Shown here: piece by piece, positions 6,339 to 37,769 of the stretch
How the letters are laid out: each line of letters opens with the position of its first letter
Position numbering within the stretch: position 1 is the stretch's first letter
Assembly: GCA_041393415.1 (NCBI GenBank)
Contig: JAWKKE010000001.1
Coordinates: 520,366 to 584,365, forward strand
Direction of reading: 5' to 3'
DNA length: 64,000 nucleotides
From: Thermoleophilia bacterium
GTDB taxonomy: Bacteria > Actinomycetota > Thermoleophilia > UBA2241
Notes under the pieces: generated by a model
Seen by the model: only the letters and a program-made list of their open reading frames with translations
What the model was told of the DNA's origin: nothing
The model's database searches: none
Made by a program: the position numbers and the translations under genes

Positions 6339-7250
6339 GGAGACTCGGCACTCGGTTCCTGGGCGCGAGAAGACATGGAGGACGAGCCTGCATCGACACG
6401 ACGTGCGAACACAACGCGGGCCAATCCGCCGAGATCGTTTCGTCGCTGCACGGCCGGGAACCGACCTGTGGCGGAGAACAGCGCGGCCACCGCGTCCGCC
6501 TCGCCCCAGCCGACTTCCACCGCGAGACCGCCGCCGGGACGCAGGCGGGCGGCGGCAGCCGGAATCAGAAGCCTGTAGACGTCGAGGCCGTCGCCGCCGC
6601 CGTACAGGGCGAGGCGCGGCTCGTAGTCGCGCACGTTCGGCTCGAGAGCGTCGTACTCCGCCGCCGGGATGTACGGTGGATTGCTGACGATCACATCGAA
6701 GCGTCGGTCAGACGGAAGGGCCGCAAACAGATCGCTGCGCATGAAGCTGACGCGTGCGGTGAGGCCGTGGTGGGCCGCGTTGCGGCGGGCCACGGCCAGC
6801 GCCTCCTCGTCGACGTCGACCGCGAGCACGCGTACGGTCGGATTCTCGGCCGCCAGCGCCAGAGCCACACAGCCGGAGCCGGTCCCGACATCAAGTATCT
6901 GCGGCTCCGGCACCGCCGAGTCGGTTGTCGCAGCGACAAACTCGAGCGCGACATCGACCAGCGTCTCCGTCTCTGGCCTGGGGATGAGCACCGCCGGCGT
7001 CACCTCGAGATCCAGCGTACGGAAGGTGCGCACTCCGCGAATGTAGGCGACGGGCTCATGCGCCTCACGACGTCGCAGATACCCCTCGAAACGCACGGCC
7101 TGCTCGACACCGAGCTCCACTTCAGGCGCCCGAAAGAGCGCCGTGCGATCGACGCCCAGTGCCGTCGCCAGCAGGAGTTCGGCGTCCAAACGCGGTGAAC
7201 GCGAACCGCCGGCGCGGAGACGCTGCGCCGCAGCGCGCAACGACTCGGCG
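6323..7250 (-). CDS. prmC: Release factor glutamine N5-methyltransferase PrmC/HemK
   Basis: Contains LDVGTGSGCVALALA (SAM motif I) and the NPPY catalytic motif (VSNPPYIPAAEY). Located immediately downstream of prfA. Start not resolved (no in-frame ATG near ALNVAESLRAAAQRL), so the 5' boundary is approximate. Confidence 0.8.
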
Positions 7251-7262
7251 ACGTTCAGTGCC

Positions 7263-8348
7263 TCACCCTCCCCCCGCGGCGGCGAGCTGCTTGCGCCGGT
7301 CCTCCGCCGCCAATGCCTCGGTGAATTCGTCAAGCTCGCCCTCGAGCACCTCGGCCAAGCGGTGGCTGGTAAGGCCGATGCGATGATCGCTGACGCGGTT
7401 CTGCTGGAAGTTGTAGGTGCGGATCTTCTGCGACCGATCGCCGCTGCCGACCATACTGCGCCGCGCCGACGCCTGTTCCGCGTCTTGCCGCTCGCGCTCG
7501 GCCTCGTAGAGGCGCGCCCTGAGAATCCGGAGGGCGCGCTCCTTGTTCTGCAGTTGGCTCTTCTCATCCTGACAGCTCACCACGAGCCCGGTCGGTAGAT
7601 GCGTCACGCGAACGGCCGAATCGGTGGTGTTGACGCTCTGCCCTCCCGGTCCACGCGCCCGGAACACGTCGATCTGGAGATCGTTTGGGTGAATCTCGAT
7701 CTCGATTTCCTCCGCCTCGGGCAGCACCGCGACCGTGGCGGTCGACGTGTGGATGCGGCCCGCGGCCTCCGTGGCCGGGACCCGCTGGACGCGGTGCACG
7801 CCGCTCTCGTACTTGAGCGTCGAATACGCGCCTTGGCCGCGCACCTCGAGAGTGATCTCTTTGTAGCCGCCGTCGTCGTTCTCGTTGGCGCTCAGCATCT
7901 CGACCGCAAAGCCCTTGGCCTGGGCGTAGCGTGTGTACATGCGCGTCAGGTCGGCGGCGAACAGCGACGCCTCGTCGCCCCCGGTGCCGGCGCGAATCTC
8001 GATGATCACGTCCTTGGCGTCGTTGGGATCACGCGTCACCATGCGCACGCGAATCTCCTCACTCAGTTCGTCGAGGGCGTGACGTCCCACGACCAGCTCT
8101 TCTTGAGCGAAGGCGCGCATCTCCGCGTCCGTCGACGTATCACCGAGAAGGGCTTCGGCATCGGTGACCGTCTGCTGCGCCTCACGATACCGGCGCGTGA
8201 GTTCGTACGCCGGCTGCAGTTCGGCGTGCTTGCGCGCCGCATCGGCGAAGCGCCCGCGGTCGGCGAGAAGTTCGGGATCGGCAAGCTGCGCGTTGAGGTC
8301 GTGGAACGAGCGCTCGATTTCTTCGATGAGGTTCTCGATAGCGGCCAT
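7263..8348 (-). CDS. prfA: Peptide chain release factor 1
   Basis: 361 aa with RF1 hallmarks: PATEAAGRIHTSTATVAVLPE (tripeptide anticodon region) and GGQ motif (RARGPGGQSVNTTDSAVRVTHLPTG). Confidence 0.95.
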   Translation of the reverse strand: MAAIENLIEEIERSFHDLNAQLADPELLADRGRFADAARKHAELQPAYELTRRYREAQQTVTDAEALLGDTSTDAEMRAFAQEELVVGRHALDELSEEIRVRMVTRDPNDAKDVIIEIRAGTGGDEASLFAADLTRMYTRYAQAKGFAVEMLSANENDDGGYKEITLEVRGQGAYSTLKYESGVHRVQRVPATEAAGRIHTSTATVAVLPEAEEIEIEIHPNDLQIDVFRARGPGGQSVNTTDSAVRVTHLPTGLVVSCQDEKSQLQNKERALRILRARLYEAERERQDAEQASARRSMVGSGDRSQKIRTYNFQQNRVSDHRIGLTSHRLAEVLEGELDEFTEALAAEDRRKQLAAAGGG

Positions 8349-11931: not shown

Positions 11932-14697
11932 TCAGGGAACGGATGCCGTCTGCAGATGCCCTTTACCATGTGCCTCCGGCCGCGCTTCCAGCCAAGAGAG
12001 CACCGCCGCGGCAGGCATGGGGCGGGCAATGTGGAAGCCCTGAGCCGCATCACACCCGAGTCCGCCGAGCATGTCGAGCGACGCCTCGTCTTCCACGCCC
12101 TCGGCCACCACCTTGAGCCCGAGATCCTGTCCCAGGCCGATCGTCGATCGTACGATGGCGGCGTCGCTGGTGTCGGTCGCCATGCGCTGAACGAACGATC
12201 GCTCGATCTTGAGATGAGTCACCGGCAGCCGCTGCAGATAGGCCAGCGACGAGTATCCGGTGCCGAAATCGTCGACGGCGACCGAGACACCGAGTTCCGA
12301 GAGACGTGCGAGCGTCTCCCGCGCGCGCTGCGGGTCCGTCATGATGCTGCCTTCGGTGACCTCGATCGTGAGCAGCGACGGCTCCACGCCGTGCTCGAGA
12401 CACAACGCCTGCAACGTCTCGAGCACCTGATGATCGTGGAGATTGCGCGCCGAGAGATTGATGCTCACCGCGACCTCATACCCGTGCTCCTGCCACGCGG
12501 CGATCTGCCGCACGACCTCGCCGACGAGCCAGAGGGTGAACGGCAGGATAAGCCCGGTCTCCTCCATGAGCGGAATGAACTCCGAAGGTCCGACACCGCT
12601 CAGCTCGTCATCTTGCCAGCGAGCCAGAGCCTCGACCGCAACAAGCCGTCTTCGCCGCACGTCGACGATCGGCTGGTAGTGCAGCGTGAAGTGGTTTGCG
12701 CGCAGTGCCTCGCGCAGACGTGACAGCAAGTGCAGGCGGTAGACGCTGTGCGGGTCCTCCTGTTGCGAGTAAAGACGCGGGCTTTCGCCCGATCGCTTCG
12801 CAACGTACATCGCGACGTCGGCGCTACGCAGAAGGCTGTGCGCGTCGGTTCCGTGATCGGGATACGTCGCGATCCCGACACTCGCCTGCAACTCGAACTG
12901 CATGTCGTCTACTTCGACCGGTGCCTCGAGGGCACGGAGAATGCGCTGAGCACCATCGCCGGCCGCGCTTGCGGAGGCGTTGGGCATGAACACCGCAAAC
13001 TCGTCTCCGCCCAGACGGGCGATCGTATCCGTGGAACGCACCATCGCCTGGAAGCGCGTGCTCAGCTCATGAAGGACGACGTCACCGACGTGATGACCGT
13101 AGGTGTCGTTGACCTCCTTGAAGCGGTCGAGATCGATGATGAGCAGGGCATGCTCATCGAGTACGCCCCGACCGCCACCGATCGCCTGGTTCATCCGCTC
13201 GTAGAGCAGCGTACGGTTGGGGAGCTCGGTGAGATTGTCGTGCAATGCTTGATACCGCAGAACCGTCTCCCACTGCGTGCGCTCCGTCACGTCACGAGCG
13301 ATGCCCTGTATGGCGACGATTTCACCGTCGCGGGTGAGCGGGCTCAGGCTGGTCTCGATCTCGACTTCGTGCCCATCTTTGGCGACAAGTGTCAGGCTGA
13401 AGACACCCTCTGGGGCGACCGAAGCAACCTGTTCCAGGCACGTCACGACCGCCGCTACATCCGCGACGGGCACGAGATCGCTCACATTCGCCCCTTGGAG
13501 CTCCTCGTTCGTGTAACCCAGCGCGGTCAAAGCGGCTCCATTGGCGGATTCAACTCGACCATCCGGCTTCAGCGTGAAGACGAAGTCGGTCGCGTTCTCG
13601 AACAGAGCGCGATACCGCGCCTCGCTTTCACTCAGAGCCAGTTCCGCCTTGCGACGGCTGGTCATGTCGCGAATCACGACGATATGCCCCGACTCTTCGT
13701 GTCCGATCTCAGAGGCGAGAAGGTCGAAGTGCCGGCGTCCTTCACCATCGTCCACTGTGGCCTGCGCACGCTGCCGTCCGGCTCCAGAGAACAGGTCGCC
13801 GAGGTTCACACCGCCAATCGCAAGTTGTGTCGCAGACTGACCTATGATCGCCGCGGCAGGCAGATCGAAGACATCGACCGCCGCCGGATTGACGTCGGCC
13901 ACTCGCCCGGCCGCGTCTACCACCACGACGCCGTCCGCCATGCCCTCGATGGCCGCGCCACGTGCCACAGGCACGAGTCCCACGAAGATGTCCAGAATGC
14001 GGAAGCGCAGTAGGCCTATGGCGAAGAGAAGACACGAGATCGACAACACGAACGGCGTCATGTCGATCTCGCGACGAGGCTGGAGATCGGCGAGGTAGAG
14101 CACGTTGGCGACAAGCGGCAGCGCCAGTCCCACGAGGATAACGGTCGTCTGGGTGCGATGGAGCTGCCGCGAGCGAATCGCCATGCGCACCAGCAGTGCG
14201 GCACCAAAGAGAAGCACGCCGTATGAGTAAGCCGTATGCACCCAGAACCAGGTACTGAAACCGGGTGAGAACGCCGGCGTGCCGGCACCCGGCGTCGTGC
14301 GCAGATCTTGCCAAACGAGGTGGTGCCATCCGTCGGTGAAGACCAGAACGATCGTGATCGCGGGCACTACCAGCAACATGACCCACTCTCGACGACCAAA
14401 GCGCGTTGTCGCACCCGAGTACTCAGCGCAGAACACAAACCACGCGACGGGCATGAACACGATGCCCAGGTACGACACCTTGGTCCACCACATGTCCCCC
14501 GACGCACCGACGCTCGAGATCGCCAGCGCGTAGGCAGTGGACCACACGAAGAGCCCGACTGCCATGGCGGCAAACGGTCGGGCCCCAGGGACAGCGAGCC
14601 GCCGGGCGCCCATGACGGCAACCAACAAGGCTATGACCGCTCCAAACCAGAGCGGCAACGTCGAGACGACGAAGTCTAGACCCGAAGGCACCGGCAA
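11932..14697 (-). CDS. Membrane sensor diguanylate cyclase/phosphodiesterase (TM sensor, PAS, GGDEF, EAL)
   Basis: 921 aa. The N-terminal roughly 300 aa are multi-TM. PAS-like segments follow, then a GGDEF motif (RLGGDEFAVFMP) and an EAL motif (EALARWQ...). The C-terminal DDFGTGYSSL is typical of the EAL domain. Confidence 0.85.
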   Translation of the reverse strand: MPVPSGLDFVVSTLPLWFGAVIALLVAVMGARRLAVPGARPFAAMAVGLFVWSTAYALAISSVGASGDMWWTKVSYLGIVFMPVAWFVFCAEYSGATTRFGRREWVMLLVVPAITIVLVFTDGWHHLVWQDLRTTPGAGTPAFSPGFSTWFWVHTAYSYGVLLFGAALLVRMAIRSRQLHRTQTTVILVGLALPLVANVLYLADLQPRREIDMTPFVLSISCLLFAIGLLRFRILDIFVGLVPVARGAAIEGMADGVVVVDAAGRVADVNPAAVDVFDLPAAAIIGQSATQLAIGGVNLGDLFSGAGRQRAQATVDDGEGRRHFDLLASEIGHEESGHIVVIRDMTSRRKAELALSESEARYRALFENATDFVFTLKPDGRVESANGAALTALGYTNEELQGANVSDLVPVADVAAVVTCLEQVASVAPEGVFSLTLVAKDGHEVEIETSLSPLTRDGEIVAIQGIARDVTERTQWETVLRYQALHDNLTELPNRTLLYERMNQAIGGGRGVLDEHALLIIDLDRFKEVNDTYGHHVGDVVLHELSTRFQAMVRSTDTIARLGGDEFAVFMPNASASAAGDGAQRILRALEAPVEVDDMQFELQASVGIATYPDHGTDAHSLLRSADVAMYVAKRSGESPRLYSQQEDPHSVYRLHLLSRLREALRANHFTLHYQPIVDVRRRRLVAVEALARWQDDELSGVGPSEFIPLMEETGLILPFTLWLVGEVVRQIAAWQEHGYEVAVSINLSARNLHDHQVLETLQALCLEHGVEPSLLTIEVTEGSIMTDPQRARETLARLSELGVSVAVDDFGTGYSSLAYLQRLPVTHLKIERSFVQRMATDTSDAAIVRSTIGLGQDLGLKVVAEGVEDEASLDMLGGLGCDAAQGFHIARPMPAAAVLSWLEARPEAHGKGHLQTASVP

Positions 14698-16068: not shown

Positions 16069-16797
16069 GTGCCGATCGCTCAGTGCAAAGGTCTCACGAA
16101 AGTGTACGGCTCCGGCCACGGTCAAGTGACCGCTCTCGATCACGTCGACCTCGCCCTCGAGGCAGGGGAGTTCGTCGCCGTCATGGGGCCGTCCGGCTGC
16201 GGCAAGTCAACCTTGCTCAATCTCATTGGCGGACTCGACACCCCCAGCGAGGGGTCGGTCATGATCGACGGCCGCGAGCTCGCGACAATGAGCGACAACG
16301 AGGTCACTCGTTTGCGTCGCGAGCGCATCGGCTTCGTCTTCCAGTTCTTCAACCTCATCCCGGTGCTCGACGCCACGGAGAACGCGGCGCTACCCCTCAC
16401 CCTGGACGGCCGCGGCGCGGAGGCCCGTCGCCATGCTGAGGAATGGTTGCGCAAAGTGGGCCTCGAGAAGCGCGCCCACAGTCGACCGGATCAGCTCTCA
16501 GGCGGCGAGCAGCAGCGCGTGGCCGTGGCCAGAGCGCTGGTCACGGAGCCGGCGCTCATCCTCGCCGACGAGCCGACCGGCAACCTCGACAGCCGCAGCA
16601 GCGAGGAGGTCGCTTCGCTTCTACGCCAGGTCGCCAGCGACTGGGGTAGGGCCATCCTGATGGTTACGCACGACCCGCGCATCGCCGCGCACGCCGACCG
16701 TATCGTATTCATGCGTGACGGACGCGTCGTCGACGACACCCACATCGCCGGCGTCGAGGACGCCCGCGAAGCGCTCGAGCAGGCAGGCCTCCTGTGA
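16069..16797 (+). CDS. ABC transporter ATP-binding protein (MacB/LolD-like)
   Basis: Walker [16 protein letters not shown] signature [15 protein letters not shown], and Walker B/D-loop [11 protein letters not shown]. Confidence 0.9.
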
Positions 16798-19331
16798 GCA
16801 TCCAAGTCACGCTGGCGCTGCGCTACATGCGCGGCCGCACCCTGCGTACCGCGCTCACAACGATGGCGATCGCCTTCGGCGTCATGATCATGTTCGGCCT
16901 CAACGGCATCCTCCCCGGCCTCACCGAAGCGTTGCAGCGCACCATGCTGGCGACGGCAGGACAGGTCGATCTCGCGGTCACTTCAAAGAGCGGCGGCACC
17001 TTTCCGGCGACCACGCTCACCAGCGTCACTCCCGTCGAAGGTGTCGCTGCCGCCACACCGGTGTTGCGACGCACCGTCTCTCTCCCCGAGAGCAGCAGCG
17101 CGTCTCTGGCATCGGTGGTGGTCGTCGGCATCGACCCATCGACGTCGCAGAGCGTCCTGCCGCTGACGCTCGCGAGCGGGCGACTGCTGTCGCAGAGCGA
17201 CGCTGAGTCGGTCGACGGCACCGTCGCAGCCGTGCTGCCCACGACGGTGGCCGACGCGCTTGGCGTAACCCTTGGTGAATCGCTCACACTGCCCTCTGCC
17301 GACGGCAGTGTGCAGCTCACGGTCGTCGGCCTGCTCGACATGCCGGCCGTGCCGGGCGTCGACGAGGTCTACGTAACGCTGTCCGCCGCACAGGCAATCC
17401 TCGCCGCCGAAGACCAGATCTCCGAGATCGACGTCGCCTTCGCCGCGGACGTCGATCGCAGCGCCGTCGAGACAGCCGTTGCCGATGCCCTCGGTCCGGA
17501 CTTCACCACCGGCGCGATCTCGAGCGCGTCACCGCTCAGCGCTGGCCTGCAGGTCGCGCGCTTCGTGATGACGACCCTCGGCCTGTTTGCGATCGCCATG
17601 GGCGGCTTCGTCATTCTCAACACCTTCCGCACTCTCGTCGCCGAGCGCCGTCACGACATCGGCATGCTGCGCGCCATCGGCGCCTCCCGCCGAACGGTCG
17701 CCGGCATCTTCGTCGTCGAGGGTCTGCTGCAAGGAGTCCTGGGCACCGCCGTCGGACTCGTTGCCGGCTGGCTGCTCGCCACCGGAGCATCGGCGGCCAT
17801 GCGAAGCATGGTCACCGATCTCATCCGCATCCCTGAGTCGAGCGTCATTTTCACACCGTCGATCTGGGCGCTGTCGATCGGCTTCGGCATCGGCGTAACC
17901 GTGCTCGCCGCCGTCCTGCCGGCCCGCAGCGCCGCCCGCCTCACCCCTCTCGAAGCGCTACGCCCGGCGCTCGGAGAGAACCAGGAGCCGGGAGCGGCGA
18001 GGCGCGCATGGCTGGGCCTGGCGTGCATCCTCATCGCCATCGCCGGTCTTGTCTCCGGACGTCTGAGCCTCGCCGGTATATCCGTCATCCTTCTCTTGCT
18101 GGGCCTCATTCTCGGTGCTCAGGTGGCGGTGCGGCCCATCACTACGCCGCTCTCTCGCGTTCTGGAGGCGGTGTTTCGGCGCGAGGGCGGCGTCGCGCGC
18201 GCCAACCTTCAGCGCGCGCCGGCTCGCGCCGCCGTCACCGCCTCCACCGTCATGGTCAGCATCGCGTTGATCATCGCGCTGGTCGGTACATTGAGCTCGG
18301 TCCTAGACGGGTTCACCAGCTACCTCGACAAGAGCATGGGAGCCGACTTCATCGTCGTGCCGCGCAATCTGCTCCTCTCGGGCGGTGTCGTCGGCGCCGG
18401 TCCCGAACTGCGCCAACAAGTCGCCGATGTGCCGGGAATCGGCGACGTCACAACCTTGCGCGTCGCCACCTCGCTCTTCAACGACACCCGCGTGCAGACT
18501 GTCGGTATCGAACCCGAGGCGTTCTCGAAAGTCGCAGGATTCGAGTTTGCGGAGGGCAGCTCGTCGGCCGACCTGGCTCGCCTGAGCGAACCCGGCAGCA
18601 TGATGGTCAACGGCGTCTTCGCGGCGCGCAACGGCGTCAAGAAGGGTGACAGCATCACGATGGAGACGCCACAGGGAACGCGCGAATTCTCCGTGGTCGC
18701 GATTGCCAACGACTACCTCAACGCGAAGCTCGCCACCGTGTACGTCTCGCAGGACACGCTGGCCAGCGTCTTCGGCGTGTCCACGGATGTCGTGCTCCTG
18801 GCGAACGCGGCTCCCGGAGCCGACGAAGACGCAGTCCTCGCCGAACTCTCCACGATCGTCGGCGACTACCCATCCTTCGTCCTGTACAGCACGTCACAGT
18901 GGCGAGCGACGCAGATCGGTATCTTCGACCAGATGCGAGTGCTCTACTTCGGCCTCGCCCTCGTTCTCGCTGTTCCTTCCCTACTGGCCTTGCTGAACAC
19001 TCTCGCCATCGGCGTGCTGTCACGAACACGCGAGATCGGCATGCTGCGCGCGGTGGGCTCCACACGTCGCCAGGTACGCCGCATGGTCACCGCGGAGGCC
19101 TTGCTGCTCGCCGCCCTCGGGACAATCGCCGGTCTCGTCGCTGGTCTCTGGCTCGGCTACGTCATGGTCGACGCGTTGAACGGCATCGGGTTGCCGATGC
19201 CATATCGCTTCCCGTGGGTTGGCATAGTGCTGGCGATCGCCGTTGCACTGGCCTTCGCGACCCTTGCGGCGCTCATACCTGCTCGACAGGCGGCGCGGCT
19301 CAACATCGTACGCGCCCTGCGCTACGAGTGA
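16794..19331 (+). CDS. ABC transporter permease, FtsX-like with two MacB-type permease/periplasmic modules
   Basis: 845 aa. It has two repeats of a 4-TM FtsX-like module, each preceded by a large extracytoplasmic domain. Its start overlaps the ATPase stop by 4 nt. Confidence 0.85.
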   Translation: MSIQVTLALRYMRGRTLRTALTTMAIAFGVMIMFGLNGILPGLTEALQRTMLATAGQVDLAVTSKSGGTFPATTLTSVTPVEGVAAATPVLRRTVSLPESSSASLASVVVVGIDPSTSQSVLPLTLASGRLLSQSDAESVDGTVAAVLPTTVADALGVTLGESLTLPSADGSVQLTVVGLLDMPAVPGVDEVYVTLSAAQAILAAEDQISEIDVAFAADVDRSAVETAVADALGPDFTTGAISSASPLSAGLQVARFVMTTLGLFAIAMGGFVILNTFRTLVAERRHDIGMLRAIGASRRTVAGIFVVEGLLQGVLGTAVGLVAGWLLATGASAAMRSMVTDLIRIPESSVIFTPSIWALSIGFGIGVTVLAAVLPARSAARLTPLEALRPALGENQEPGAARRAWLGLACILIAIAGLVSGRLSLAGISVILLLLGLILGAQVAVRPITTPLSRVLEAVFRREGGVARANLQRAPARAAVTASTVMVSIALIIALVGTLSSVLDGFTSYLDKSMGADFIVVPRNLLLSGGVVGAGPELRQQVADVPGIGDVTTLRVATSLFNDTRVQTVGIEPEAFSKVAGFEFAEGSSSADLARLSEPGSMMVNGVFAARNGVKKGDSITMETPQGTREFSVVAIANDYLNAKLATVYVSQDTLASVFGVSTDVVLLANAAPGADEDAVLAELSTIVGDYPSFVLYSTSQWRATQIGIFDQMRVLYFGLALVLAVPSLLALLNTLAIGVLSRTREIGMLRAVGSTRRQVRRMVTAEALLLAALGTIAGLVAGLWLGYVMVDALNGIGLPMPYRFPWVGIVLAIAVALAFATLAALIPARQAARLNIVRALRYE

Positions 19332-20209
19332 ACTGCTCCCGCGCCGCGCGGCACGCGCACGGCAAGTGCCGCCGGACGGACCACGATGTTCAGGCGCCGC
19401 ACCGCAGGCCGAGTGTCTCCGTCGACCTCGTACGGCATGGCATGAGCCAGCGAGACCGTGACAGACCTGCCCGTCGTCGTCTCAACGAACGGCGACGACG
19501 CCGGGTCACCGAGAACGGTCCTGCTCAGCATCCGCGCCCACTCCAGCGCGCCCTCAGCCGTGATCACACCGACGTCGAGGACTCCGTCGTCCGGGAGGGC
19601 GTTTGGGAAGGCGGTCATGCCTGCGATCAAATGGCCCACGTTGCCAACCAGGACACAACTCGCGAGACCAGAGAACCATGCGGCACCGTCCACTGCGACG
19701 CTGGTGTGAACCGGGTCATGCGTGACACTGCGCACGCCGACGGCGACGTAGGCCAGCGGCCCGAGCCGGTCCTTCAGCCCGGTATCGACGTCGCGCATCA
19801 AGATGGCGTCGAACCCCGTACCCGCCATGACGGCGAATGGCTCGCCGTTGACGACGCCGATGTCGATCCGTCGTGTGTCTCCAGACAGACCGATCTCGAC
19901 GGCCGCCTCGAGATCTGTCGGAATGCCGAGATTCGCGGCGAGGAGATTGGCCGTCCCCGCCGGCAACAGTGCGAGGGTGGCCGGAGTGCCGGCGAGGCCG
20001 GCAATGCACTCCTGCACCATCCCGTCGCCGCCCCACACAAAGAGCAGATCGACGCCGGCGGCGATCTGCTCCTTCACAGCCTCAGGTACGTCCTCGGCGC
20101 TGCCAGTCTCGCGCCACAGCGGCTCCACGCCACGCCGGCCGAGGACGGCGCGCAGCGCGCGAAGCCCTGGCCCAAGTGACTTGGTCGGATTCGCGACGAC
20201 GCCGATCAC
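19322..20209 (-). CDS. Diacylglycerol kinase catalytic domain family lipid kinase (YegS/DagK-like)
   Basis: DAGK_cat motifs LLFVWGGDGMVQE and PAGTANLLAANLGIP. Confidence 0.8.
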   Translation of the reverse strand: MIGVVANPTKSLGPGLRALRAVLGRRGVEPLWRETGSAEDVPEAVKEQIAAGVDLLFVWGGDGMVQECIAGLAGTPATLALLPAGTANLLAANLGIPTDLEAAVEIGLSGDTRRIDIGVVNGEPFAVMAGTGFDAILMRDVDTGLKDRLGPLAYVAVGVRSVTHDPVHTSVAVDGAAWFSGLASCVLVGNVGHLIAGMTAFPNALPDDGVLDVGVITAEGALEWARMLSRTVLGDPASSPFVETTTGRSVTVSLAHAMPYEVDGDTRPAVRRLNIVVRPAALAVRVPRGAGAVHS

Positions 20210-20309
20210 TGCCCCTCCTTCGCCAATAGGCTACCCGCTAGAGTCTTGAGACTAGCGGAAGGTTGACCACACCGAGTTGCGGCACACCGTGACGATACCG
20301 TCACCGGGA

Positions 20310-21086
20310 TCATTCCGAGACGTAGCGCGGATACGTATGCTTGGCGGCGCGTGCATGCTCAAGATCGATCGTAACGGTCGCGAACGGCGTCGCAGCATCG
20401 GTTCGCGCCAAGACCACGCCGTCGGGATCGACGATCCATCCGAGCCCGCCGCAATCGGTTTCGCTTGCCGGCGGGTACCAGAGATTCGACGAGAGGCAGA
20501 ACGCGCCCGAGCACACGGCGGCGGCGCGACCACCCGCAAGCCAGACGTCGGTCGATCCGTAGGGCGTAGCGCGCGGGACGCAAAGCACGTCGGCGCGCTC
20601 TGCCGCATAGTGTCGCGCCCATTCCATAAACCACATCTCGGTGCAAACGAGGACGCCGATACGCATGCCGAGCGCGCGACCAAGATCGAAGCGCTTCTCA
20701 CCACGGTCGTACCAGCTCGCCTCCCAGTAGCCTGGCTCGTCGGGAAGATAGTACTTTTCGCGTATCGGTACGACGTCCGCCGCGCCCTCCTCCCAGAGGT
20801 ACGCCTGATTCCGCCGGCTCCCGAGCGCCGTGACGATCGGCCGCGTACCGACGACGGCGCGAGCGCCAAGGTCGGCAAGTCTGGCCACGTGGCGCTCGTG
20901 CTCCGCCACCGAGGCGAGCCAGAGGCGCGCGTCGGGGATCCTCTCAATGGCGAGCCACGCGGAAAAGCACAACTCCGGCAGAAGCAAGAAGTCGGTTCCG
21001 GCCGCCTGCACGTGGGCACGCAAGACCGCCAGCGAGCCTTCCAGATGCCCGGGGCGCGGATCGACTTGGCAGACAGTGACCTTCAC
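20310..21086 (-). CDS. Carbon-nitrogen hydrolase family protein (nitrilase superfamily)
   Basis: MKVTVCQVDPRPGHLEGSLAVLRAHVQAAGTDFLLLPELCFSAWLA shows the catalytic-Glu context LPEL. Catalytic Lys and Cys contexts were not individually verified. Confidence 0.7.
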   Translation of the reverse strand: MKVTVCQVDPRPGHLEGSLAVLRAHVQAAGTDFLLLPELCFSAWLAIERIPDARLWLASVAEHERHVARLADLGARAVVGTRPIVTALGSRRNQAYLWEEGAADVVPIREKYYLPDEPGYWEASWYDRGEKRFDLGRALGMRIGVLVCTEMWFMEWARHYAAERADVLCVPRATPYGSTDVWLAGGRAAAVCSGAFCLSSNLWYPPASETDCGGLGWIVDPDGVVLARTDAATPFATVTIDLEHARAAKHTYPRYVSE

Positions 21087-21227
21087 GCCGCTAGCCTACC
21101 GCGCCACGAAAGACACACGTCGGACTGCGCCGTAGCGTGATGCCGCCGCGCACGCCATCCGTCGCCATCAGTCGCTCCAACTCTGCCGACCAGACGAAGC
21201 TCGCCGGCGCGAGACATACGCCGGCGA

Positions 21228-22253
21228 CTAGTCGTTCGGCCGCAGGATGACCTTGAGGCAGGCAGACGGCTGCGCGGCCATCCTGAACGCCTCACCGACC
21301 TGCTCGAGCGGGAAGCGGTGCGTGATCATGTCGTCGACCTGGACCGTCCCGCGACGCAGGAGCTCGAGCGCCTGCACATTGTCGAACGGCGCGGCGCCGT
21401 AGCAGGTCCGCAAACTGATGTCGTTGCGCCAGAAGGGATTGAAGTCGACGGCGAGCGTCTCGCCGGGCTTTCCGACGGCGAAGAAGAGCGCCGTGCCGCC
21501 GCGGCCGACGCTACGCATGGCGGCGTCGGCGGCGCTTGCGGCGCCCGTACATATGACGACATGATCGGCCGGTCTGCCGGCGTGCTCCGCGAAGCGCGCC
21601 GCGACGTCGTCGCCGGCATGAACCGCAAGGTCGGCCCCCGCCGACCGGGCCGCCGCCAGGCGGAACTCGTCGATGTCGGCCACCGCGACCACCCCGGCGC
21701 CGAGCGCCTTCGCCAGCTTCACGAACAGCAACCCCGCGAGGCCCGCGCCGTACACGAGCACGCCCTCGGTCGGCGCCAGGCGAATCGTTCGCAGTGCGCG
21801 CACGACGGTGGCCAGCGGCTCCACAAACGTGCCGGTCTCGTACGCGACCTCGTCCGGCAGTTTGAGGATACCGGTACGCACGCTGCGCCCGGTGACGCGC
21901 AGGAACTGCGCGAACCCGCCGGGCGCAAAGTTATTGACCTCCTGGAAGGTCCGACAGGCGGTCTCGTGTCCGCGCAGACATTCGCGGCACTCGCCGCAGG
22001 GCACATGGTGCGTAGCGAAGACCCTGTCGCCGACCATCAGTCCCGTCACGTCTTCGCCGACTTCGACGATGTCGCCTGTCACCTCGTGGCCGAGCACGAG
22101 AGGCGCGCGTTTGATTCGGTACCACTCCATGAGGTCCGAGCCGCAGATGCCACTGGCTCGGACCTTGATCAAGACATCGCCGGGTCTCACCACGGGACGT
22201 TCCTGCTCTTCGAGACGTACGTCGGCATTGCAGTAGTACATGCCGACCTTCAT
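21228..22253 (-). CDS. Zinc-dependent alcohol/polyol dehydrogenase (MDR family; sorbitol/threonine dehydrogenase-like)
   Basis: GICGSDLMEW...GHEVTGDIVEVG is the MDR catalytic zinc motif, followed by the structural Zn Cys cluster CGECRECLRGHETAC. Start at internal MKVGMYY. Confidence 0.8.
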   Translation of the reverse strand: MKVGMYYCNADVRLEEQERPVVRPGDVLIKVRASGICGSDLMEWYRIKRAPLVLGHEVTGDIVEVGEDVTGLMVGDRVFATHHVPCGECRECLRGHETACRTFQEVNNFAPGGFAQFLRVTGRSVRTGILKLPDEVAYETGTFVEPLATVVRALRTIRLAPTEGVLVYGAGLAGLLFVKLAKALGAGVVAVADIDEFRLAAARSAGADLAVHAGDDVAARFAEHAGRPADHVVICTGAASAADAAMRSVGRGGTALFFAVGKPGETLAVDFNPFWRNDISLRTCYGAAPFDNVQALELLRRGTVQVDDMITHRFPLEQVGEAFRMAAQPSACLKVILRPND

Positions 22254-22311
22254 GCGCCCGTCTCCACCTACTCCCTGAGTCACGTTGACTTCCCCGCGCG
22301 GCGCTGGCGAC

Positions 22312-23199
22312 TCACGCCCCGGCGCCGTCGCTGGCGAGGCCGCGATAGAGCTCGTAGCCCTCCGCGGCCGACGCCCCCTCGTGCACAACCTTGCGCACAG
22401 CCTGAATCATCGCCACCGGCGCCGCCGACTGGAAGACGTTTCGGCCCATGTCAACACCGGCGGCGCCGCGATCGATGGCGTCACGCGCCATCTGCAGCGC
22501 GGCGAGCTCGTCCAGCTTCTTCCCGCCGGCGATCACGATCGGCACCGGACACGCAGCCGTCACCCTCTCGAAATCCTCGACGTAGTACGTCTTGACGATT
22601 GCAGCGCCCAACTCCGCGAGAATGCGCGTCGCAAGACCGATGTACCGTGCGTCGCGTGTCAGCTCAGTGCCGACTGCAGTGACTCCCAGCACGGGGATGC
22701 CGTAACGACTGCACGAGTCCACCAGGCTCGTCATGTTGTGCACCGACTGCGTCTCGTGCGTCCCGCCGATGAAGACCTGTACTGCCACAGCGCTCGTGTT
22801 GAGTCGCAGGGCATCCTCGACGTCAACGGCGAGCCGTTCGTCTGACAGGTCCTTGAGAATGGAGGGTCCGCCCGAGGCTCGCAGTACGACCGCGTTCGAC
22901 GCTTCCGGATTGATGAGCGTGCGTAACACGCCGCGTGTGCACATCAAAGCGTCGGCGTACGGCACCAGCGGGCCGATCGTCACGTCGATGCGCTCGAGAC
23001 CGGTGGTCGGACCCTGGAAGTAGCCGTGATCAAACGCCAACATGACGGTCTTGCCACTGCATGGGTCGAAGACACGCGCCAGCCGATTCTTCATCCCCCA
23101 GTCGTAGCTCCCGGAGCCCTTGAGGGAGTATTCGCAGTTCCGTTGCGGAGTATCGAAGTAATACTCCTTGCGCTTCGTGGAGATGTCCTGTTCTGGCAT
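22312..23199 (-). CDS. DhnA-type class I aldolase family protein (FBA/LsrF/AroA'-like)
   Basis: 295 aa with [17 protein letters not shown] and AIVKTYY...IVIAGGKK, typical of the DeoC/FbaB (DhnA) TIM-barrel Schiff-base aldolase family. Confidence 0.7.
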
Positions 23200-23264
23200 G
23201 GAGAAGCCTCTCTCTTCACGGTCGATGCGGCGCCTCGGACTCTAGGGTTCGTCTCCGAGGCGCG

Positions 23265-24089
23265 TCAAGTTGCCGCCGACGCGTCTTTCGAGTTGGAGCG
23301 CAGATCTCTCAGTGAAGCCAAGTCGTCGACGGTGAGCGCGAAGGTGAAGCGGTAGCCGGCGCCCACGCTCACAGGCCGCAGGTCGCCGAGCTCGAGATAC
23401 GGATGCTCGTGGAAGGCGAGAGTTGCCTCACCCCTCCAGATGGGCGACACACTCACGTCACGGGACTTGAGCTGGACGAGCTCGTAGACCGCCGGCTGTT
23501 CGTGCTTCCCCGCAGCAAGCTCCGGGAAGTGCCGTGTGTTCACCGCACGCGCGAAGCTGGGCGTCGGTAATGCCTCCGCCTCCTCGCGCAGCGTGATCTG
23601 TGCTTCCGCGAGAAGCCGGTCCTTGACCGCGAGAGTGGCTCCGAAACGGCCACCGGGGCCGGCGACCGGCCCCGCTTTCGAGGGCAAGTCGTAAGCACGT
23701 GTCATCCAGGTGGAGCCGATCTGCTTGGGCCAACCCTGCGCGAGCCCTCGCATCAGGGCAACGTCCTGATCCACCCAGATGAACGGGCAGAAAGCGACGG
23801 ACGCACCCTCGTACGAAGCCGAGAGAAGGACGATGGTCTCGCGGTACTGACTGCGAATGGGGTCGAGGTACTCAAGCCCCGTGTCGCTGGCGTACTGCCA
23901 TTCAAGGAAGTAGACGGCGCAGTGATTCGAGGAGAACTCCAGGCCTTCCGGCAAGAACGCGGCCACCGCCTCCGGGCTCGCGGCGAACTCGACTGCCAGC
24001 GCGTTGCCCACGTAGTGCCATGGCGGCGCCGGTGAGAGACTCGACGTCCCACGCGGCGTGCGTGGCAGCGTGTACCCCTTCAGCATCAT
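23265..24089 (-). CDS. Acetoacetate decarboxylase (ADC) family protein
   Basis: Start MMLKGYTLPRTPRGTSSL matches the conserved ADC-family N-terminus. AGGAGG RBS precedes ATG 24089. Confidence 0.65.
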   Translation of the reverse strand: MMLKGYTLPRTPRGTSSLSPAPPWHYVGNALAVEFAASPEAVAAFLPEGLEFSSNHCAVYFLEWQYASDTGLEYLDPIRSQYRETIVLLSASYEGASVAFCPFIWVDQDVALMRGLAQGWPKQIGSTWMTRAYDLPSKAGPVAGPGGRFGATLAVKDRLLAEAQITLREEAEALPTPSFARAVNTRHFPELAAGKHEQPAVYELVQLKSRDVSVSPIWRGEATLAFHEHPYLELGDLRPVSVGAGYRFTFALTVDDLASLRDLRSNSKDASAAT

Positions 24090-25940
24090 GCCTCCTTCCG
24101 ACCTCAAGCAAGTCGTCGTCAAACCTGTAAACCGCCGCAACGGTCCTGTCTGTGAGCTTACCCCAGCGGGTAGAATAACTGCCTAGGGCGACGGCGTCTG
24201 GTTTGGACTATGCATGGGCAGCATCGGACCAGTCGTCGTGGCGGAGAGAGTTGGGTTGACCGCGTGGCGGTCGGAGGCAGCAATGAGCACTGGGTATCCC
24301 GTCAAGCCACGTCGCCGATCGCGGGCATCATTACTTGGGCTGGTCCTGGCGTTTCTGGCCGCCACGGCCCTGCTGTTCGCAGCCATCGTCGACAACGCCG
24401 AGGCGGCAGGCAAGACCGTCCTAATCGTTGCTCCCCATCCAGACGACGATCTACTCTACGGGGCCGGCGTCGCCGCCCGTGCGCTCGCCAACGGCGACAC
24501 GGTCAAGGTCGTCTTCATGACCAACGGCGACCTGCTCGGCGCCACCACGGTACGCGAAGTCGAGGGCGTCAACGCCCAGACTCAGTACATCGGCACCACC
24601 GAAGACGACCTCATGTTCCTCGGGTACCCCGACGGAGGACTCTGGCACATCCTCCACTGGCAACCCAGTGCCACCGACGTCTACGTCGCTCGCCAAGGTA
24701 CGTCTGCCACCTACGGCATTCGCGGCCTTGGACGCACCGACTACCACAACTACCGGTTCGGCACACACGCCACCTACAACCGTGCCAATATCCTCGCTGA
24801 TCTTGAGGACATCCTCGCCACCTATCGTCCGGACGACGTCTACACCACCTCACAGTACGACGGTGCCTCAGACCACGCGGCGACACGCTGGCTGGTCAAG
24901 ACGGCGCTTGCAGCGCGCGTCACCGCCGACCCCACCTACGCACCCACTTTCCACACGACCTTCGTCGATTGGCCGCACTCCAGCGACTGGCCGGCTTCCA
25001 TGAACGCCGCTGCCGACTTCACGGAGCCCTCCGGTCTCTCCAGCTACACACCGCTAGTCTGGTCGGCTCGTGAGAGCTTCCCAGTGCCCACTGCGATGCA
25101 GTCGACCGACTACCCGACCAACCCCAAGTATCTGGCCGTCAACGCCCATGTCAGCCAGGGTGGCACGTCGGGCATCCTCGGCCGCTACATCCACCGCGAC
25201 GAGTTCTTCTGGGTCGACCCAATCGTCGCCGCCGCCAATAGCGCGCCAGGAGCGAACGCCGGGCCGGCGCAGACGGCGATCGAGAAGACGGTCGCCCAAC
25301 TCGACGGCCGCAGCAGCACCGATCCCGACGGCGACCCACTGTACTACGCCTGGACACAGACCGGCGGACCCTCAGTCACTCTCTCTGACTCCACATCCGT
25401 GCGCCCGACATTCTCCGCGCCCGCCGGTACGTCCACGCTGACCTTCCAGCTGATCGTCAGTGACGGCCGGCTCTCAAGCAGCCCATCCACAGTCACCGTC
25501 TCCGTGGTGCCCGAGGGCAGCGCGTCCGTCAACGTGGCGCCTCGCGCCTGGCTCTACGCCTCCACCGAAGACCGCACCACCGGCCAGTACGCCTTCAAGG
25601 CCGTCGACGGCAGCGCCGACGGCTATCCCGGCGATTACACGCGCGAATGGGTCTCCCGCCAGACGAGCGGCGCCTGGCTCAAGCTTGCTTGGACCGAACC
25701 TACAACAGTGAGTCGCATCGTCCTCAACGACCGCCGCAACCTGAACGACCAGATCACCGGCGGGACCATCACGTTCAGCGACGGTAGCTCCATCTCCACC
25801 GGTTCGCTGCCCAACGACGGCTCACCGCTCACGCTTACGTTCACGGCCCGCACCGTGACCTGGCTGCAACTCACGGTCAATTCCGTCAGCTCGAGCACCG
25901 ACGGCATCGGCCTCGGCGAGATCGAGGTGTACGGTGGCGC

Positions 25941-26205
25941 CGCCGTCAATCAGGCGCCAACCGCGAACGCCGGCGCCAACCAGTCGGTGACCACCGGCAG
26001 CAGCGTGCAACTCGACGGCAGCGGCAGCTCCGACCCAGACGGGGATTCGCTCACCTACACCTGGACGCAGACGGAAGGGCCGGCGGTGAGCCTCTCCAGC
26101 ACGAGCGCCGCGCAACCTACCTTCACCGCACCCTCCGCGGCGACGAGTCTCACCTTCCAGCTCGTCGTCAGCGACGGTACGGTCTCGAGCGATCCGGCAA
26201 GCGTG
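25941..26205 (+). repeat. 265-nt intragenic repeat (PKD unit), copy 1; copy 2 at 26663..26927 differs at one position
   Basis: Direct comparison of the two stretches (gccgtcaatcaggcgccaaccgcgaacgcc...gatccggcaagcgtg). A shorter 84-nt identical block pairs 25751..25834 with 26471..26554. Confidence 0.85.
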
Positions 26206-26928
26206 ACGGTAGCCGTGACGGCGACCGGAGGCGGAGGCGCCGCGACCAACATTGCGCCGCTGGCAACGGTCACCGCCTCCGGACAGGTCACTTCGACGGG
26301 GCAGCTCGCGATCAAGGCCGTCGACGGCAGCGCCGACGGCTATCCCGGCGATTACACGCGCGAATGGGCGTCCGGATCCACCAAGAGCGGCACGTGGTTG
26401 AAGCTCGTGTGGACGAGCCCGTACACGGTAGATCACATCGTCCTTAACGATCGCCCCAACCTCAACGATCAGATCACCGGCGGGACCATCACGTTCAGCG
26501 ACGGTAGCTCCATCTCCACCGGTTCGCTGCCCAACGACGGCTCACCGCTCACGCTCAACTTCGCCGCCCGCAGCGTCACCAGCGCCCAGCTCACCGTCAC
26601 GTCGATCAGCTCAACGACGCAGAATATCGGCCTCAGCGAGATCGAGGTCTACACGCAGGGTGCCGCCGTCAATCAGGCGCCAACCGCGAACGCCGGCGCC
26701 AACCAGTCGGTGACCACCGGCAGCAGCGTGCAACTCGACGGCAGCGGCAGCTCCGACCCAGACGGGGATTCGCTCTCCTACACCTGGACGCAGACGGAAG
26801 GGCCGGCGGTGAGCCTCTCCAGCACGAGCGCCGCGCAACCTACCTTCACCGCACCCTCCGCGGCGACGAGTCTCACCTTCCAGCTCGTCGTCAGCGACGG
26901 TACGGTCTCGAGCGATCCGGCAAGCGTG

Positions 26929-28282
26929 GTCGTCACCGTCGATCCGCCGGCCCCCTTGCCGACACTCTCGATTAGCGACGAGACGGTCACCGAGGGCAAC
27001 TCGGGCAGCAGCAACGCAAGCTTCACGGTCACGCTCTCGGCGGCCAGCACGCAGACGGTCACCGTGAACTACGCCACTAGCAACGGGACGGCGACGGCCG
27101 GCAGCGACTACACGGCGACGAGCGGCACGCTTACCTTCACTGCCGGGCAGACGTCGAAGACCGTGAGCGTCGCGGTGCTCGGCGACACACTGGTCGAAGC
27201 GGACGAGACCTTCAGTGTGACCTTGACCAGTCCCGCCAACGCCACCCTGGCAAAGAGCGTCGGCCTCGGCACGATCCTGGACAACGACTCTACCCGGCGC
27301 TGTCGATCGCCGATGCAACCGTGGCCGAGGGCAATAGCGGCAGCAGCAACGCCGGCTTCACGGTCACCTCTCGGCGGCCTATCCGCAAGCGGTCACCGTG
27401 AACTACGCCACCAGCAACGGCACGGCGACGCCGGCAGCGACTACACGGCCACCTCGGGCACACTCACCTTCAACGCCGGCGAAACGAGCAAGACGATCAA
27501 CGTCCCCATCCTCGGCGACACCACTATCGAGAGCGACGAGACCTTCACGGTCACACTCTCGAGCCCGGTCAACGCAACGATCGCCGCTGGCTCCGCCACA
27601 GGAAGTCGTCACCGTCGATCCGCCGGCCCCCTTGCCGACACTCTCGATTAGCGACGAGACGGTCACCGAGGGCAACTCGGGCAGCAGCAACGCAAGCTTC
27701 ACGGTCACGCTCTCGGCGGCCAGCACGCAGACGGTCACCGTGAACTACGCCACTAGCAACGGGACGGCGACGGCCGGCAGCGACTACACGGCGACGAGCG
27801 GCACGCTTACCTTCACTGCCGGGCAGACGTCGAAGACCGTGAGCGTCGCGGTGCTCGGCGACACACTGGTCGAGGCGGACGAGACCTTCAGTGTGACCTT
27901 GACCAGTCCCGCCAACGCCACCCTGGCAAAGAGCGTCGGCCTCGGCACGATCCTGGACAACGACTCCTACCCGGCGCTGTCGATCGCCGATGCAACCGTG
28001 GCCGAGGGCAATAGCGGCAGCAGCAACGCCGGCTTCACGGTCACACTCTCGGCGGCCTATCCGCAAGCGGTCACCGTGAACTACGCCACCAGCAACGGCA
28101 CGGCGACGGCCGGCAGCGACTACACGGCCACCTCGGGCACACTCACCTTCAACGCCGGCGAAACGAGCAAGACGATCAACGTCCCCATCCTCGGCGACAC
28201 CACTATCGAGAGCGACGAGACCTTCACGGTCACACTCTCGAGCCCGGTCAACGCAACGATCGCCGCTGGCTCCGCCACAGGA
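26929..28282 (+). repeat. Tandem duplication of a roughly 676-nt unit encoding two Calx-beta domains (unit 1 26929..27604, unit 2 27605..28282). First halves are identical except one substitution; the second half of unit 1 carries three 1-nt deletions
   Basis: 26929..27290 equals 27605..27966 (362 nt, 1 mismatch). 27291..27604 aligns to 27967..28282 with gaps at gactc-tacc, tcac-ctctc and gacg-ccggc. Confidence 0.85.
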
Positions 28283-28714
28283 ACGATCACGAACGACGAC
28301 GCGGCAGTGACCTTGCCGACGTTGTCCATCAATGATGTGTCACGCAAAGAGGGTCGGTTGTGGTACTCGACGTTCACATTCACAGTGAGCCTGTCGGGAA
28401 CCAACACGAACACCGTCACGGTCTCGTACGCGACCGCGAGCGGCACGGCGGTCTCGGGCAGCGACTTCCTGAACACCTCAGGGACGCTGACCTTCACACC
28501 CAGCACTCGCTCGCGCACGATCAGCGTCCGCGTCTACGGGGATCGCCTCCCAGAGGCCAACGAGATCTTCTTCGTCAATCTCTCGAACGCAACCAACGCG
28601 ACGATCACCAAGGCACAGGGTATCGGGACGATTCTCAACGACGATTGACGCGCCGTTAGTACAACCGGAGCAGGACACATGCTGCCCTGGCTGGCCTCGA
28701 CTGCCTAGGAGGAC

Positions 28715-29689
28715 CTACTCCCCAGTCGAGGCCAGCCAGGGCAGCGTCAACACCGACAGCGCGGCGGCGACACAGAGCAGCACTACAGCGCTTCTCACGA
28801 ATCCGGCGCGACTCGCGAGGGCAGCAGGAACGATCCCAGCCGCACTCTCCGCTTGCGGTCGCGCCCGGAGTGTCGTGTACGCAGCCGCCAAGTCGATCGT
28901 CACGACCAGCGCAAGCACACCGGCTTTGATCCCATGGAAGACGGCATCCCACGGCCGGTCGATCGACATCAGCACCAGGAGTATCTGCCAGCACGCCACG
29001 GCCAGGGTAGCCACTGCGGCGAGCACGAACGGCCAGCGCGAGGTGCTCCGCCACGCACACAGAATCGCAACAACGACGAGCACCACCGCTGGTCCAACCC
29101 AGAAGAGCGCCACTCGAGCTGCTAGCCAAGTGGCGTCGAGTTCCGGATGCCGCAGCGCAACAGAGTCAACGGCCTGCGGTACACCGACCGACTCGAGCGG
29201 CAGAGGATCTTGAAGGACCGAGAAGTCGGCGGCACTCCACACGCCGTCAGCTCCCTGCCAGTAGAGAAACACAAGGTGCGAGCCCCGCTCTTCCACACCG
29301 TCAGTGTCCATGACGAAGTCGCCGTCAATGGTGATCAGGTACACGCGATCGGGGGTCAGAGACGAGAGTCCTGCCCTAGACACACCGAGCAGCCGCGCCG
29401 CCGAAGCCGCCGACGTCTCGACGTAGCTTGCCGAATACCGGGAGCTGTGCCCCCACTGCCGTGCGGCGTCCACCACAGCGCCCGTGAGACCGCTGGGCGG
29501 CTCGGCCGCGTACGCCGCCGGCGCGACGAGGAGCGCAACGCCGATAAGAACGATGAACCACACCAGCCGGCCAAACCGGCCAGCAGCACTCCCGCCAACC
29601 CAGGGCGACATGCACGTCGATTCGCTCATGGACCGCCATGCCCTCCCGTAGAGCCGACACGCCTCTCGGCAGACAGCGAGCGCGTGCAT
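28715..29689 (-). CDS. Hypothetical integral membrane protein
   Basis: 324-aa ORF with an N-terminal TM helix, a central soluble region and a C-terminal cluster of TM helices. No recognised family. Start uncertain. Confidence 0.45.
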   Translation of the reverse strand: MHALAVCREACRLYGRAWRSMSESTCMSPWVGGSAAGRFGRLVWFIVLIGVALLVAPAAYAAEPPSGLTGAVVDAARQWGHSSRYSASYVETSAASAARLLGVSRAGLSSLTPDRVYLITIDGDFVMDTDGVEERGSHLVFLYWQGADGVWSAADFSVLQDPLPLESVGVPQAVDSVALRHPELDATWLAARVALFWVGPAVVLVVVAILCAWRSTSRWPFVLAAVATLAVACWQILLVLMSIDRPWDAVFHGIKAGVLALVVTIDLAAAYTTLRARPQAESAAGIVPAALASRAGFVRSAVVLLCVAAALSVLTLPWLASTGE

Positions 29690-29981
29690 CCAATTACGCC
29701 ACGGCGCCCTCGCTCGTCAACACGCGGCGATGTGCTCGGGTCGCCGCGATAGCTGCCGATCTTCTGTACGACGATAGTCTTCCGAGTCTCCCCAGACTTC
29801 AATGAAAGGCATCCGAACAGATGAGTCAATACGTTGGCTCGTAGAAGGGAAGTCGCGTGAACAACCGTCAAGCCCTGAGACAGGCGCAGCGAGATGCGAT
29901 ATGGAGATGGCGTTGGCTTGGACTGCGGCAGAGTACGCCCGGCTTCAAGGGCAGTCTGATCTTGATCGGAGCTGCCGCCGT

Positions 29982-37595: not shown

Positions 37596-37769
37596 CTCCT
37601 GGACTCGGCTCTTCGCTACGTGGCGAGCGAACCAAGACTCGTGAAGGTATCTTACGGGCCAGCCGCAGGTCTGAGCCAGTCTTCTTAGACCTCCCACACC
37701 GCCCCCCCGAGCCGCACGAGAGCGTCCCAGCAATCGGGTCGAGGCCTTCCGGGCGGGATGGATAGGAGC

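Follow-up and report, generated by a model that had tools for sequence, protein, structure and literature searches.

Out-of-frame duplication and clustered single-base deletions in a secreted PIG-L deacetylase-like gene of a Thermoleophilia genome: probably artefactual, at least in part

Does the broken 3' end of a large PIG-L/LmbE gene in an uncultured Thermoleophilia bacterium belong to the organism or to its assembly? The gene occupies positions 24283-28648 on the forward strand of the stretch of DNA analyzed here (64,000 nucleotides (nt), henceforth the window). Its end holds two near-identical tandem copies of a unit that spans two Calx-beta domains, the first copy carrying three single-base deletions in close succession. 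The preliminary description of this sequence had set two accounts side by side, a mis-assembled or mis-polished repeat and a recent duplication followed by decay. That framing was right; the evidence leans towards the artefact. The disruption is most likely technical and, failing that, an ordinary strain-specific lesion. The gene itself is, judged by its predicted domains, a typical member of a known architecture.

The region had been described as encoding a single protein of about 1,450 amino acids (aa). The listing of open reading frames (ORFs) contradicts this, as the span of 4,366 nt is of the form 3n + 1 and a continuous ORF of that length is therefore impossible. ORF1 stops at 27651, and the sequence beyond is read by ORF2 in another frame. 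The tandem units of 676 and 679 nt each leave a remainder of one on division by three, which the earlier account had overlooked. Since the intact unit is 679 nt long, the junction between the copies (27604|27605), and not the deletions, is the main frame-breaking lesion; the stop codon of ORF1 (27649-27651) follows 15 codons downstream. The deletions, which had been said to break the frame twice and to restore it once, total -3. In Calx-beta B they leave 47 codons misread but introduce no stop, and the frame is regained at 27430. The restoration thus holds locally, but the junction breaks the frame again. The notion that the deletions compensate for the +1 junction was rejected, as three of them leave a net shift of +1 and one or four would be required for rescue. 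Removal of copy 1 in silico yields a clean ORF of 1,252 aa (1,229 aa from the second ATG). The first 69 codons of ORF2 are mostly out-of-frame Calx-beta B, and the rest covers Calx-beta A', B' and C in the correct frame; ORF2 lacks a signal peptide and probably does not represent a gene of its own. As the sequence stands, the region is one gene whose 3' end is disrupted by the out-of-frame duplication and the deletions. Look-ups of the exact products of ORF1 (from both starts) and of ORF2 returned no record, which would fit an annotation as pseudogene. As a matter of practice, the frame arithmetic of a duplicated unit deserves a check before the insertions and deletions (indels) within it are interpreted.

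Exact-repeat mapping and alignment bore out both the tandem duplication of the 676-nt copy and the clustering of 1-nt deletions in that inner copy. The limits given earlier for the first copy (26929-27604) stood, whereas the second ends at 28283 (679 nt) and not at 28282. Pairwise alignment finds a single mismatch between the copies, the synonymous pair 27198 A and 27874 G; copy 1 in addition lacks one base at each of three sites, after 27289 (CC to C), 27367 (CACAC to CACC) and 27429 (GG to G). In the intact copy the identical-base runs at these sites are 2, 1 and 2 nt long; the only 5-nt homopolymers of the gene (CCCCC, at 26951 and 27627) are unchanged. The 362-nt duplicated block reported earlier is confirmed (26929-27290 = 27605-27966, one mismatch) and is the first part of the tandem unit. 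The other reported block exists as well, at 267 nt rather than 265 nt, and pairs 25939-26205 with 26662-26928, the second and third PKD modules (PKD2 and PKD3), with one mismatch (26053/26776). The tandem unit and these PKD blocks are the only long repeats across the window.

The breakpoints of the duplication have peculiarities of their own. No microhomology is found at the junction (the three boundaries read G|G, A|G and A|C), and the 33-mer that spans it is present once in the window. The left breakpoint (26928|26929) falls on the first base past the PKD2/PKD3 identity block. This coincidence has a chance of about 0.0007-0.004 and is one for which we could not find a biological explanation; the identity block also occurs in a sister metagenome-assembled genome (MAG) and is therefore an independent feature. 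A left breakpoint on a repeat edge with no microhomology at the junction fits the edge of a node in an assembly graph better than it fits a random biological breakpoint. Unequal crossover between Calx-beta A and C was entertained as the source of the duplication and rejected, as the junction holds the PKD-to-Calx linker in a unit of 679 nt, whereas crossover at CCTTGCCGAC would give 681 nt. Nor does the junction have the marks of an unequal homologous crossover in general: it joins the end of Calx-beta B to the PKD-to-Calx linker with no homology, and the unit is not a multiple of three.

How such differences are to be read depends on the quality of the surrounding consensus. Proteins encoded elsewhere in the window match NCBI entries MEZ5125094.1 and MEZ5125090.1, labelled as from a MAG of a Thermoleophilia bacterium. 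The longest contig that carries these entries measures 1,044,619 nt, which points to what is probably a long-read assembly. The assemblies of the same species available for comparison were the sister MAG GCA_036751705.1 (L001, L011), SPAdes contigs from ERZ724080-83 (L003-L006, L012-L014) and Logan contigs (L002, L007, L008). One contig from run SRR28338172 has 99.98% identity to the window. Comparison with the sister MAG across some 25 kb of unique DNA gives 76 substitutions and 4 indels, the latter at 13562, 32530 (3 nt), 37615 (10 nt) and 37744 (1 nt). By the sister's annotation, those at 37615 and 37744 are intergenic (hydrolase and methyltransferase genes). At 13562 it is the sister's gene that is broken, and the window keeps an ORF of 921 aa; this ORF (11932-14697, minus strand) encodes a HisKA_7TM/PAS-GGDEF-EAL protein, which in the sister (L001 18509-20888) is one base short and falls into two pieces of 387 aa and at least 532 aa. 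Against the Illumina contigs, no indel is seen over 16566-26205. The consensus of the window outside the repeats is clean, with no coding frameshift relative to independent short-read contigs. With the sister-MAG indels taken as the natural baseline (a 1-nt indel at 29812, which differs from L013 only, was left out), the 3 indels to 1 substitution between the tandem copies depart from the expected 4 to 76 (Fisher p = 0.0014). Even when neutral indels are allowed to make up 10-20% of mutations, at least three indels among four differences has p = 0.004-0.03.

No independent assembly resolves the repeat zone; the short-read assemblies of the species fail or collapse exactly there. In the sister MAG (L001), a gap of 100 N replaces window 27041-28286. 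Two SPAdes contigs (L004 and L005, each 1-240, from two separate samples, ERZ724083 and ERZ724080) join 26205 straight to 26929 and both end at 27040/27041. They are without one 723-nt in-frame DUF7402-PKD unit (window 26206-26928), either as a deletion allele generated by recombination between the 267-nt PKD blocks or as a collapsed repeat. The Illumina contig L013 enters from the 3' side, crosses 28283|28284 unbroken and stops at 27663, leaving the first 58 nt of the unit uncovered. It carries none of the three deletions, agrees with copy 1 at the single mismatch between the copies, and differs from both copies of the window at the same ten or so positions. Because the two window copies share these differences, they are each other's closest relatives, and the extra copy arose within this lineage or within the assembly. 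The right breakpoint has two further contig ends within 3 nt of it, that of L012 at 28281 and that of the left contig of L001 at 28287. These ends could weakly indicate a real branch at the boundary of Calx-beta B and C in other populations, or nearby single-nucleotide polymorphisms between strains. We also tried to read the short-read contig ends (27040/27041, 27663, 28281 and 28287) as branch points of a de Bruijn graph; no single k value fits, and the pattern is suggestive only.

Searches beyond these assemblies yielded little that bears on the repeat. The junction 33-mer has no match in the GTDB representative genomes or in the JGI metagenome contigs, and the pattern of the second deletion site, with its base allowed to be present or absent, has none in the JGI metagenome contigs. 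A search of genome contigs for related loci returned only distant PIG-L genes from Clostridia and Moorella at 33% identity, and no orthologue from which a repeat count could be taken. Among homologues of ORF2, sought for fragments bearing the junction, only generic Calx-beta proteins of at most 62% identity were found.

On this evidence, the three deletions at the least are probably artefacts of assembly or consensus in a long-read metagenome, and the extra copy may be one too. That both the deletions and the extra copy are false is the fuller form of this account, and we put it somewhat short of an even chance; that the duplication is real and the deletions alone are errors is possible, if rather doubtful. 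In a strain-mixed population, a near-identical repeat would leave reads without a unique placement, and one of its copies could then be poorly supported. All of the differences fall within the one long near-identical repeat of the window, in which unique placement of reads is impossible. Repeats in particular are known to retain long-read errors after polishing with short reads (Wick & Holt 2022, Polypolish, PMC8812927). The likeness to that class of error is that the discrepancies here are of the deletion type and occur only in near-identical copies, with the unique DNA clean; the difference is that the classic errors are of homopolymer length, whereas the contexts here are runs of 1-2 nt. 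Several observations weigh against an artefact. The deletions lie outside homopolymers while the CCCCC runs are correct, which is atypical of the classic homopolymer errors of nanopore or PacBio reads. The consensus elsewhere is indel-clean, so the error process must be specific to the repeat. Copy 2 and the stretch 27430-27873 across the junction are free of errors, and any unpolished core would be very small. Long-read contigs seldom contain false tandem duplications as short as 679 nt. To these are added the contig ends within 3 nt of the right breakpoint (L012 and L001) and the fluidity of the module array in this species.

The alternative takes every difference at face value. A recent non-homologous, out-of-frame duplication of 679 nt would have truncated the gene, and copy 1, by then under little constraint, would have acquired three -1 deletions, perhaps all at once if the repair synthesis that accompanied the duplication was error-prone. 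We consider this unlikely. The absence of any coding frameshift over the 25 kb of unique DNA is in its favor, as is the single synonymous substitution between the copies, which is expected of a young duplicate. So are the short-read contigs of other samples that end within 3 nt of the right breakpoint, and the fluid module array of the species, seen in the loss of 723 nt in L004 and L005, in the mosaic DUF7402 modules of L001 and in an A-like patch within Calx-beta B of L013. Many homologues of about 1,020 aa are devoid of Calx-beta domains, and loss of the tail may accordingly be nearly neutral. Yet the indel-rich spectrum is unlike the baseline, all three differences are deletions clustered in one copy, the left breakpoint sits on the edge of another repeat, and the junction 33-mer is absent from the GTDB and JGI collections. 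Selection for frame rescue offers no explanation, since three deletions do not rescue the frame and one or four would. A version in which everything happened in one event, a break-induced or template-switch duplication whose error-prone synthesis (DinB/Pol IV-like, with a bias to -1 frameshifts) left three -1 deletions in the new unit, we hold to be improbable. If true, the locus would be a scar that mutagenic repair had left naturally in the genome of an uncultured member of the Thermoleophilia.

Two further explanations invoke function. The preliminary description had suggested slip-based variation of a surface protein, that is, a phase-variable contingency locus in which slipped-strand mispairing at the indel sites switches the C-terminal array. 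A repeat-rich secreted protein with frame-changing 1-nt indels does invite the idea, which we nonetheless find very improbable: no indel site holds a simple-sequence tract (a homopolymer of about 7 nt or more, or short tandem repeats), the sites being runs of 2, 1 and 2 while the 5-nt runs are invariant. Moreover, the 679-nt junction breaks the frame whatever the state of the indels, the Illumina sister contig displays the intact state only, and the protein has no cell-surface anchor. Programmed ribosomal frameshifting or recoding across the junction, which would produce a protein with five Calx-beta domains, is scarcely credible. The overlap of ORF1 and ORF2 in different frames is all that speaks for it. 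The ribosome would have to shift by +1 no more than 15 codons from 27605, yet GGA AGT CGT CAC CGT CGA TCC shows neither a slippery heptamer nor a recognized +1 motif; the homologues are each a single uninterrupted ORF, and the 47 scrambled codons in Calx-beta B would stay.

What the disruption means for the protein depends on which of these accounts is correct. If only the deletions are false, the real allele would encode a truncated enzyme that probably retains activity; with the extra copy false as well, the real gene would be an intact ORF of 1,229-1,252 aa with three Calx-beta domains. If everything is real, ORF1 keeps the predicted signal peptide, the PIG-L domain, both DUF7402 modules, the three PKD modules and Calx-beta A, and its product could stay active and the lesion be nearly neutral. 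The locus carries little biological weight; its practical value is that of a quality flag, as spurious pseudogenes can result where a long-read MAG has near-identical repeats inside a gene. The features are collected in Table 1.

Table 1. Coordinates of the reading frames, protein modules and repeat elements of the PIG-L gene (window positions)
Feature	Position	Strand	Remarks
ORF1	24283-27651 (alternative ATG 24214)	+	Signal peptide to Calx-beta A, partly scrambled Calx-beta B, 15-codon out-of-frame tail, TAG
Predicted signal peptide or signal anchor	24283-24405	+	MSTGYPVKPRRRSRASLLGLVLAFLAATALLFAAIVDNAEA; basic n-region, hydrophobic core, AEA-type cleavage motif; read from the translation
PIG-L/LmbE (PF02585)	24421-24906	+	70.2 bits against a gathering score of 28.2; ORF1 residues 70-231
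PKD1	25225-25505	+	About 65% identity to PKD2 and PKD3
DUF7402 module 1	25528-25932 (approximate limits)	+	About 80% DNA identity to module 2
PKD2	25939-26205	+	267-nt block, identical to PKD3 except at 26053
DUF7402 module 2 (PF24135)	26248-26652	+	ORF1 residues 679-813
PKD3	26662-26928	+	267-nt block, identical to PKD2 except at 26776; tandem unit starts at the next base
Tandem copy 1	26929-27604	+	676 nt; PKD-to-Calx linker, Calx-beta A, Calx-beta B minus its last 6 codons; three 1-nt deletions
Deletion stretch	27289-27430	+	Three sites within 141 nt, copy 1 only; 47 codons out of frame
Deletion-allele k-mers			CAACGACTCTACCCGGCG, ACGGTCACCTCTCGGCGG, GGCGACGCCGGCAGCGAC
Intact-allele k-mers			CAACGACTCCTACCCGGCG, ACGGTCACACTCTCGGCGG, GGCGACGGCCGGCAGCGAC
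ORF2 (mechanical)	27398-28648	+	416 aa; frame other than that of ORF1; overlaps ORF1
Duplication junction	27604-27605	+	…CCACAGGAA|GTCGTCACC…; junction k-mer GGCTCCGCCACAGGAAGTCGTCACCGTCGATCC
Tandem copy 2	27605-28283	+	679 nt; intact; in frame with Calx-beta C
End of Calx-beta B', Calx-beta C, natural stop codon	28284-28648	+	

The domain content proposed earlier was confirmed by Pfam, which finds a PIG-L domain, three PKD modules, two DUF7402 modules (315 bits) and Calx-beta domains; the DUF7402 modules are those that had been called discoidin-like. Calx-beta (PF03160) is matched above threshold by two stretches in ORF1 (126.5 bits) and three in ORF2 (202.1 bits). The module order would then be signal peptide, PIG-L, PKD, DUF7402, PKD, DUF7402, PKD and a Calx-beta array. 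The (A/P)HPDD metal/catalytic motif is present, as APHPDDD at residues 73-79 aligns with VAPHPDD of TT1542 (1uan). An SDH near residue 220 stands opposite the PDH of TT1542 and 8bgn (the HxDH/PDH second-His motif), in low-scoring alignment segments only. The PIG-L/LmbE family comprises metal-dependent sugar de-N-acetylases, placed by CAZy in family CE14. Judging from these features, we infer that the gene encodes a secreted multi-module PIG-L/LmbE enzyme, a putative glycan de-N-acetylase, and the predicted signal peptide suggests that the protein is exported. Such an enzyme would strip N-acetyl groups from an extracellular glycan, presumably of the GlcNAc type; substrate binding may fall to the DUF7402 modules, and those of the PKD and Calx-beta types may serve as immunoglobulin-like (Ig-like) spacers. 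The label of adhesin attached to the protein earlier finds no support: simple regular expressions detected no C-terminal sorting or anchor signal (LPXTG, GlyGly-CTERM, PEP-CTERM or similar), and the protein ends …GIGTILNDD* inside its last Calx-beta domain.

The fusion had also been thought unusual. A homologue search in a collection of 5.8 billion proteins (E ≤ 1e-10) returned 433 matches, and nearly all of the 120 listed among them combine PF02585, PF24135 and PKD (PF22352/PF18911) within 1,000-1,900 aa; several have 3-7 Calx-beta domains in addition. Six homologues that were re-scanned for domains have 2-3 DUF7402 modules, 3-4 PKD modules and 0, 3 or 7 Calx-beta domains, and Calx-beta is missing altogether from many homologues of about 1,020 aa. 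By its predicted domain composition, the fusion of PIG-L, DUF7402 and PKD, with or without Calx-beta, is common in environmental bacteria and biochemically untested, and the count of Calx-beta modules appears to vary naturally among relatives. Literature searches on DUF7402 and on PIG-L with Calx-beta gave nothing useful on the architecture. Secreted PIG-L/DUF7402 proteins form a family of hundreds of members with no known substrate, a reasonable target for enzymology.

Four environmental proteins annotated as LmbE family N-acetylglucosaminyl deacetylases (P0003, P0004, P0001 and P0006) follow the same grammar, with an N-terminal PIG-L domain, 2-3 DUF7402 modules, 3-4 PKD modules and a C-terminal Calx-beta array. 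They are 42-51% identical to the query over about 55-60% of its length. They have seven Calx-beta domains in an intact ORF of 1,677-1,769 aa, whereas the present gene has three in the single-copy reconstruction or a broken five. The solved PIG-L enzymes, TT1542 from Thermus (1UAN) and the archaeal diacetylchitobiose deacetylase (8BGN/8BGO), together with the MshB and BshB1 family, have in common with this protein the HPDD motif and the PF02585 fold signature. The relationship is very distant (E = 2e-6 over 78 residues, 8BGN being a weaker match than TT1542). The solved enzymes are cytoplasmic, about 230-270 aa long, and act on small GlcNAc conjugates; in contrast, the present protein is predicted to be secreted, exceeds 1,200 aa, and carries putative glycan-binding and Ig-like modules. 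A likeness to modular surface or secreted proteins of variable repeat number lies in the 267-nt near-identical PKD blocks, the sister allele without the 723-nt in-frame unit and the mosaic DUF7402 modules. The 679-nt duplication differs from that pattern in being out of register with the modules, not a multiple of three and without homology at its junction.

The module array holds further small traces of exchange. In the sister MAG (L001, about 6540-7540) the DUF7402 units are mosaic: the end of unit 2, corresponding to window 26583-26661, carries the type that the window has in unit 1 (EVYGG…), and a short patch of unit 1, at 25659-25713, departs from the window as well. The pattern is suggestive of gene conversion between modules or of a chimeric short-read assembly. 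In L013, a 13-nt patch of Calx-beta B (window 28133-28145) has the sequence of Calx-beta A, ACGGCGACGAGCGGCACG, which suggests short-tract gene conversion between adjacent Calx-beta units.

Downstream of the gene, on the minus strand at 28715-29689, lies a gene for a protein of 304-324 aa with hydrophobic stretches and no Pfam match on record; a look-up of the exact 304-aa product of the window's allele found no record. Directly upstream and divergent, at 21228-24140 on the minus strand, are three genes with no evident functional link to the deacetylase. They encode a DeoC/LsrF-type aldolase (annotated by NCBI as 3-hydroxy-5-phosphonooxypentane-2,4-dione thiolase), a member of the acetoacetate decarboxylase family and a zinc alcohol dehydrogenase.

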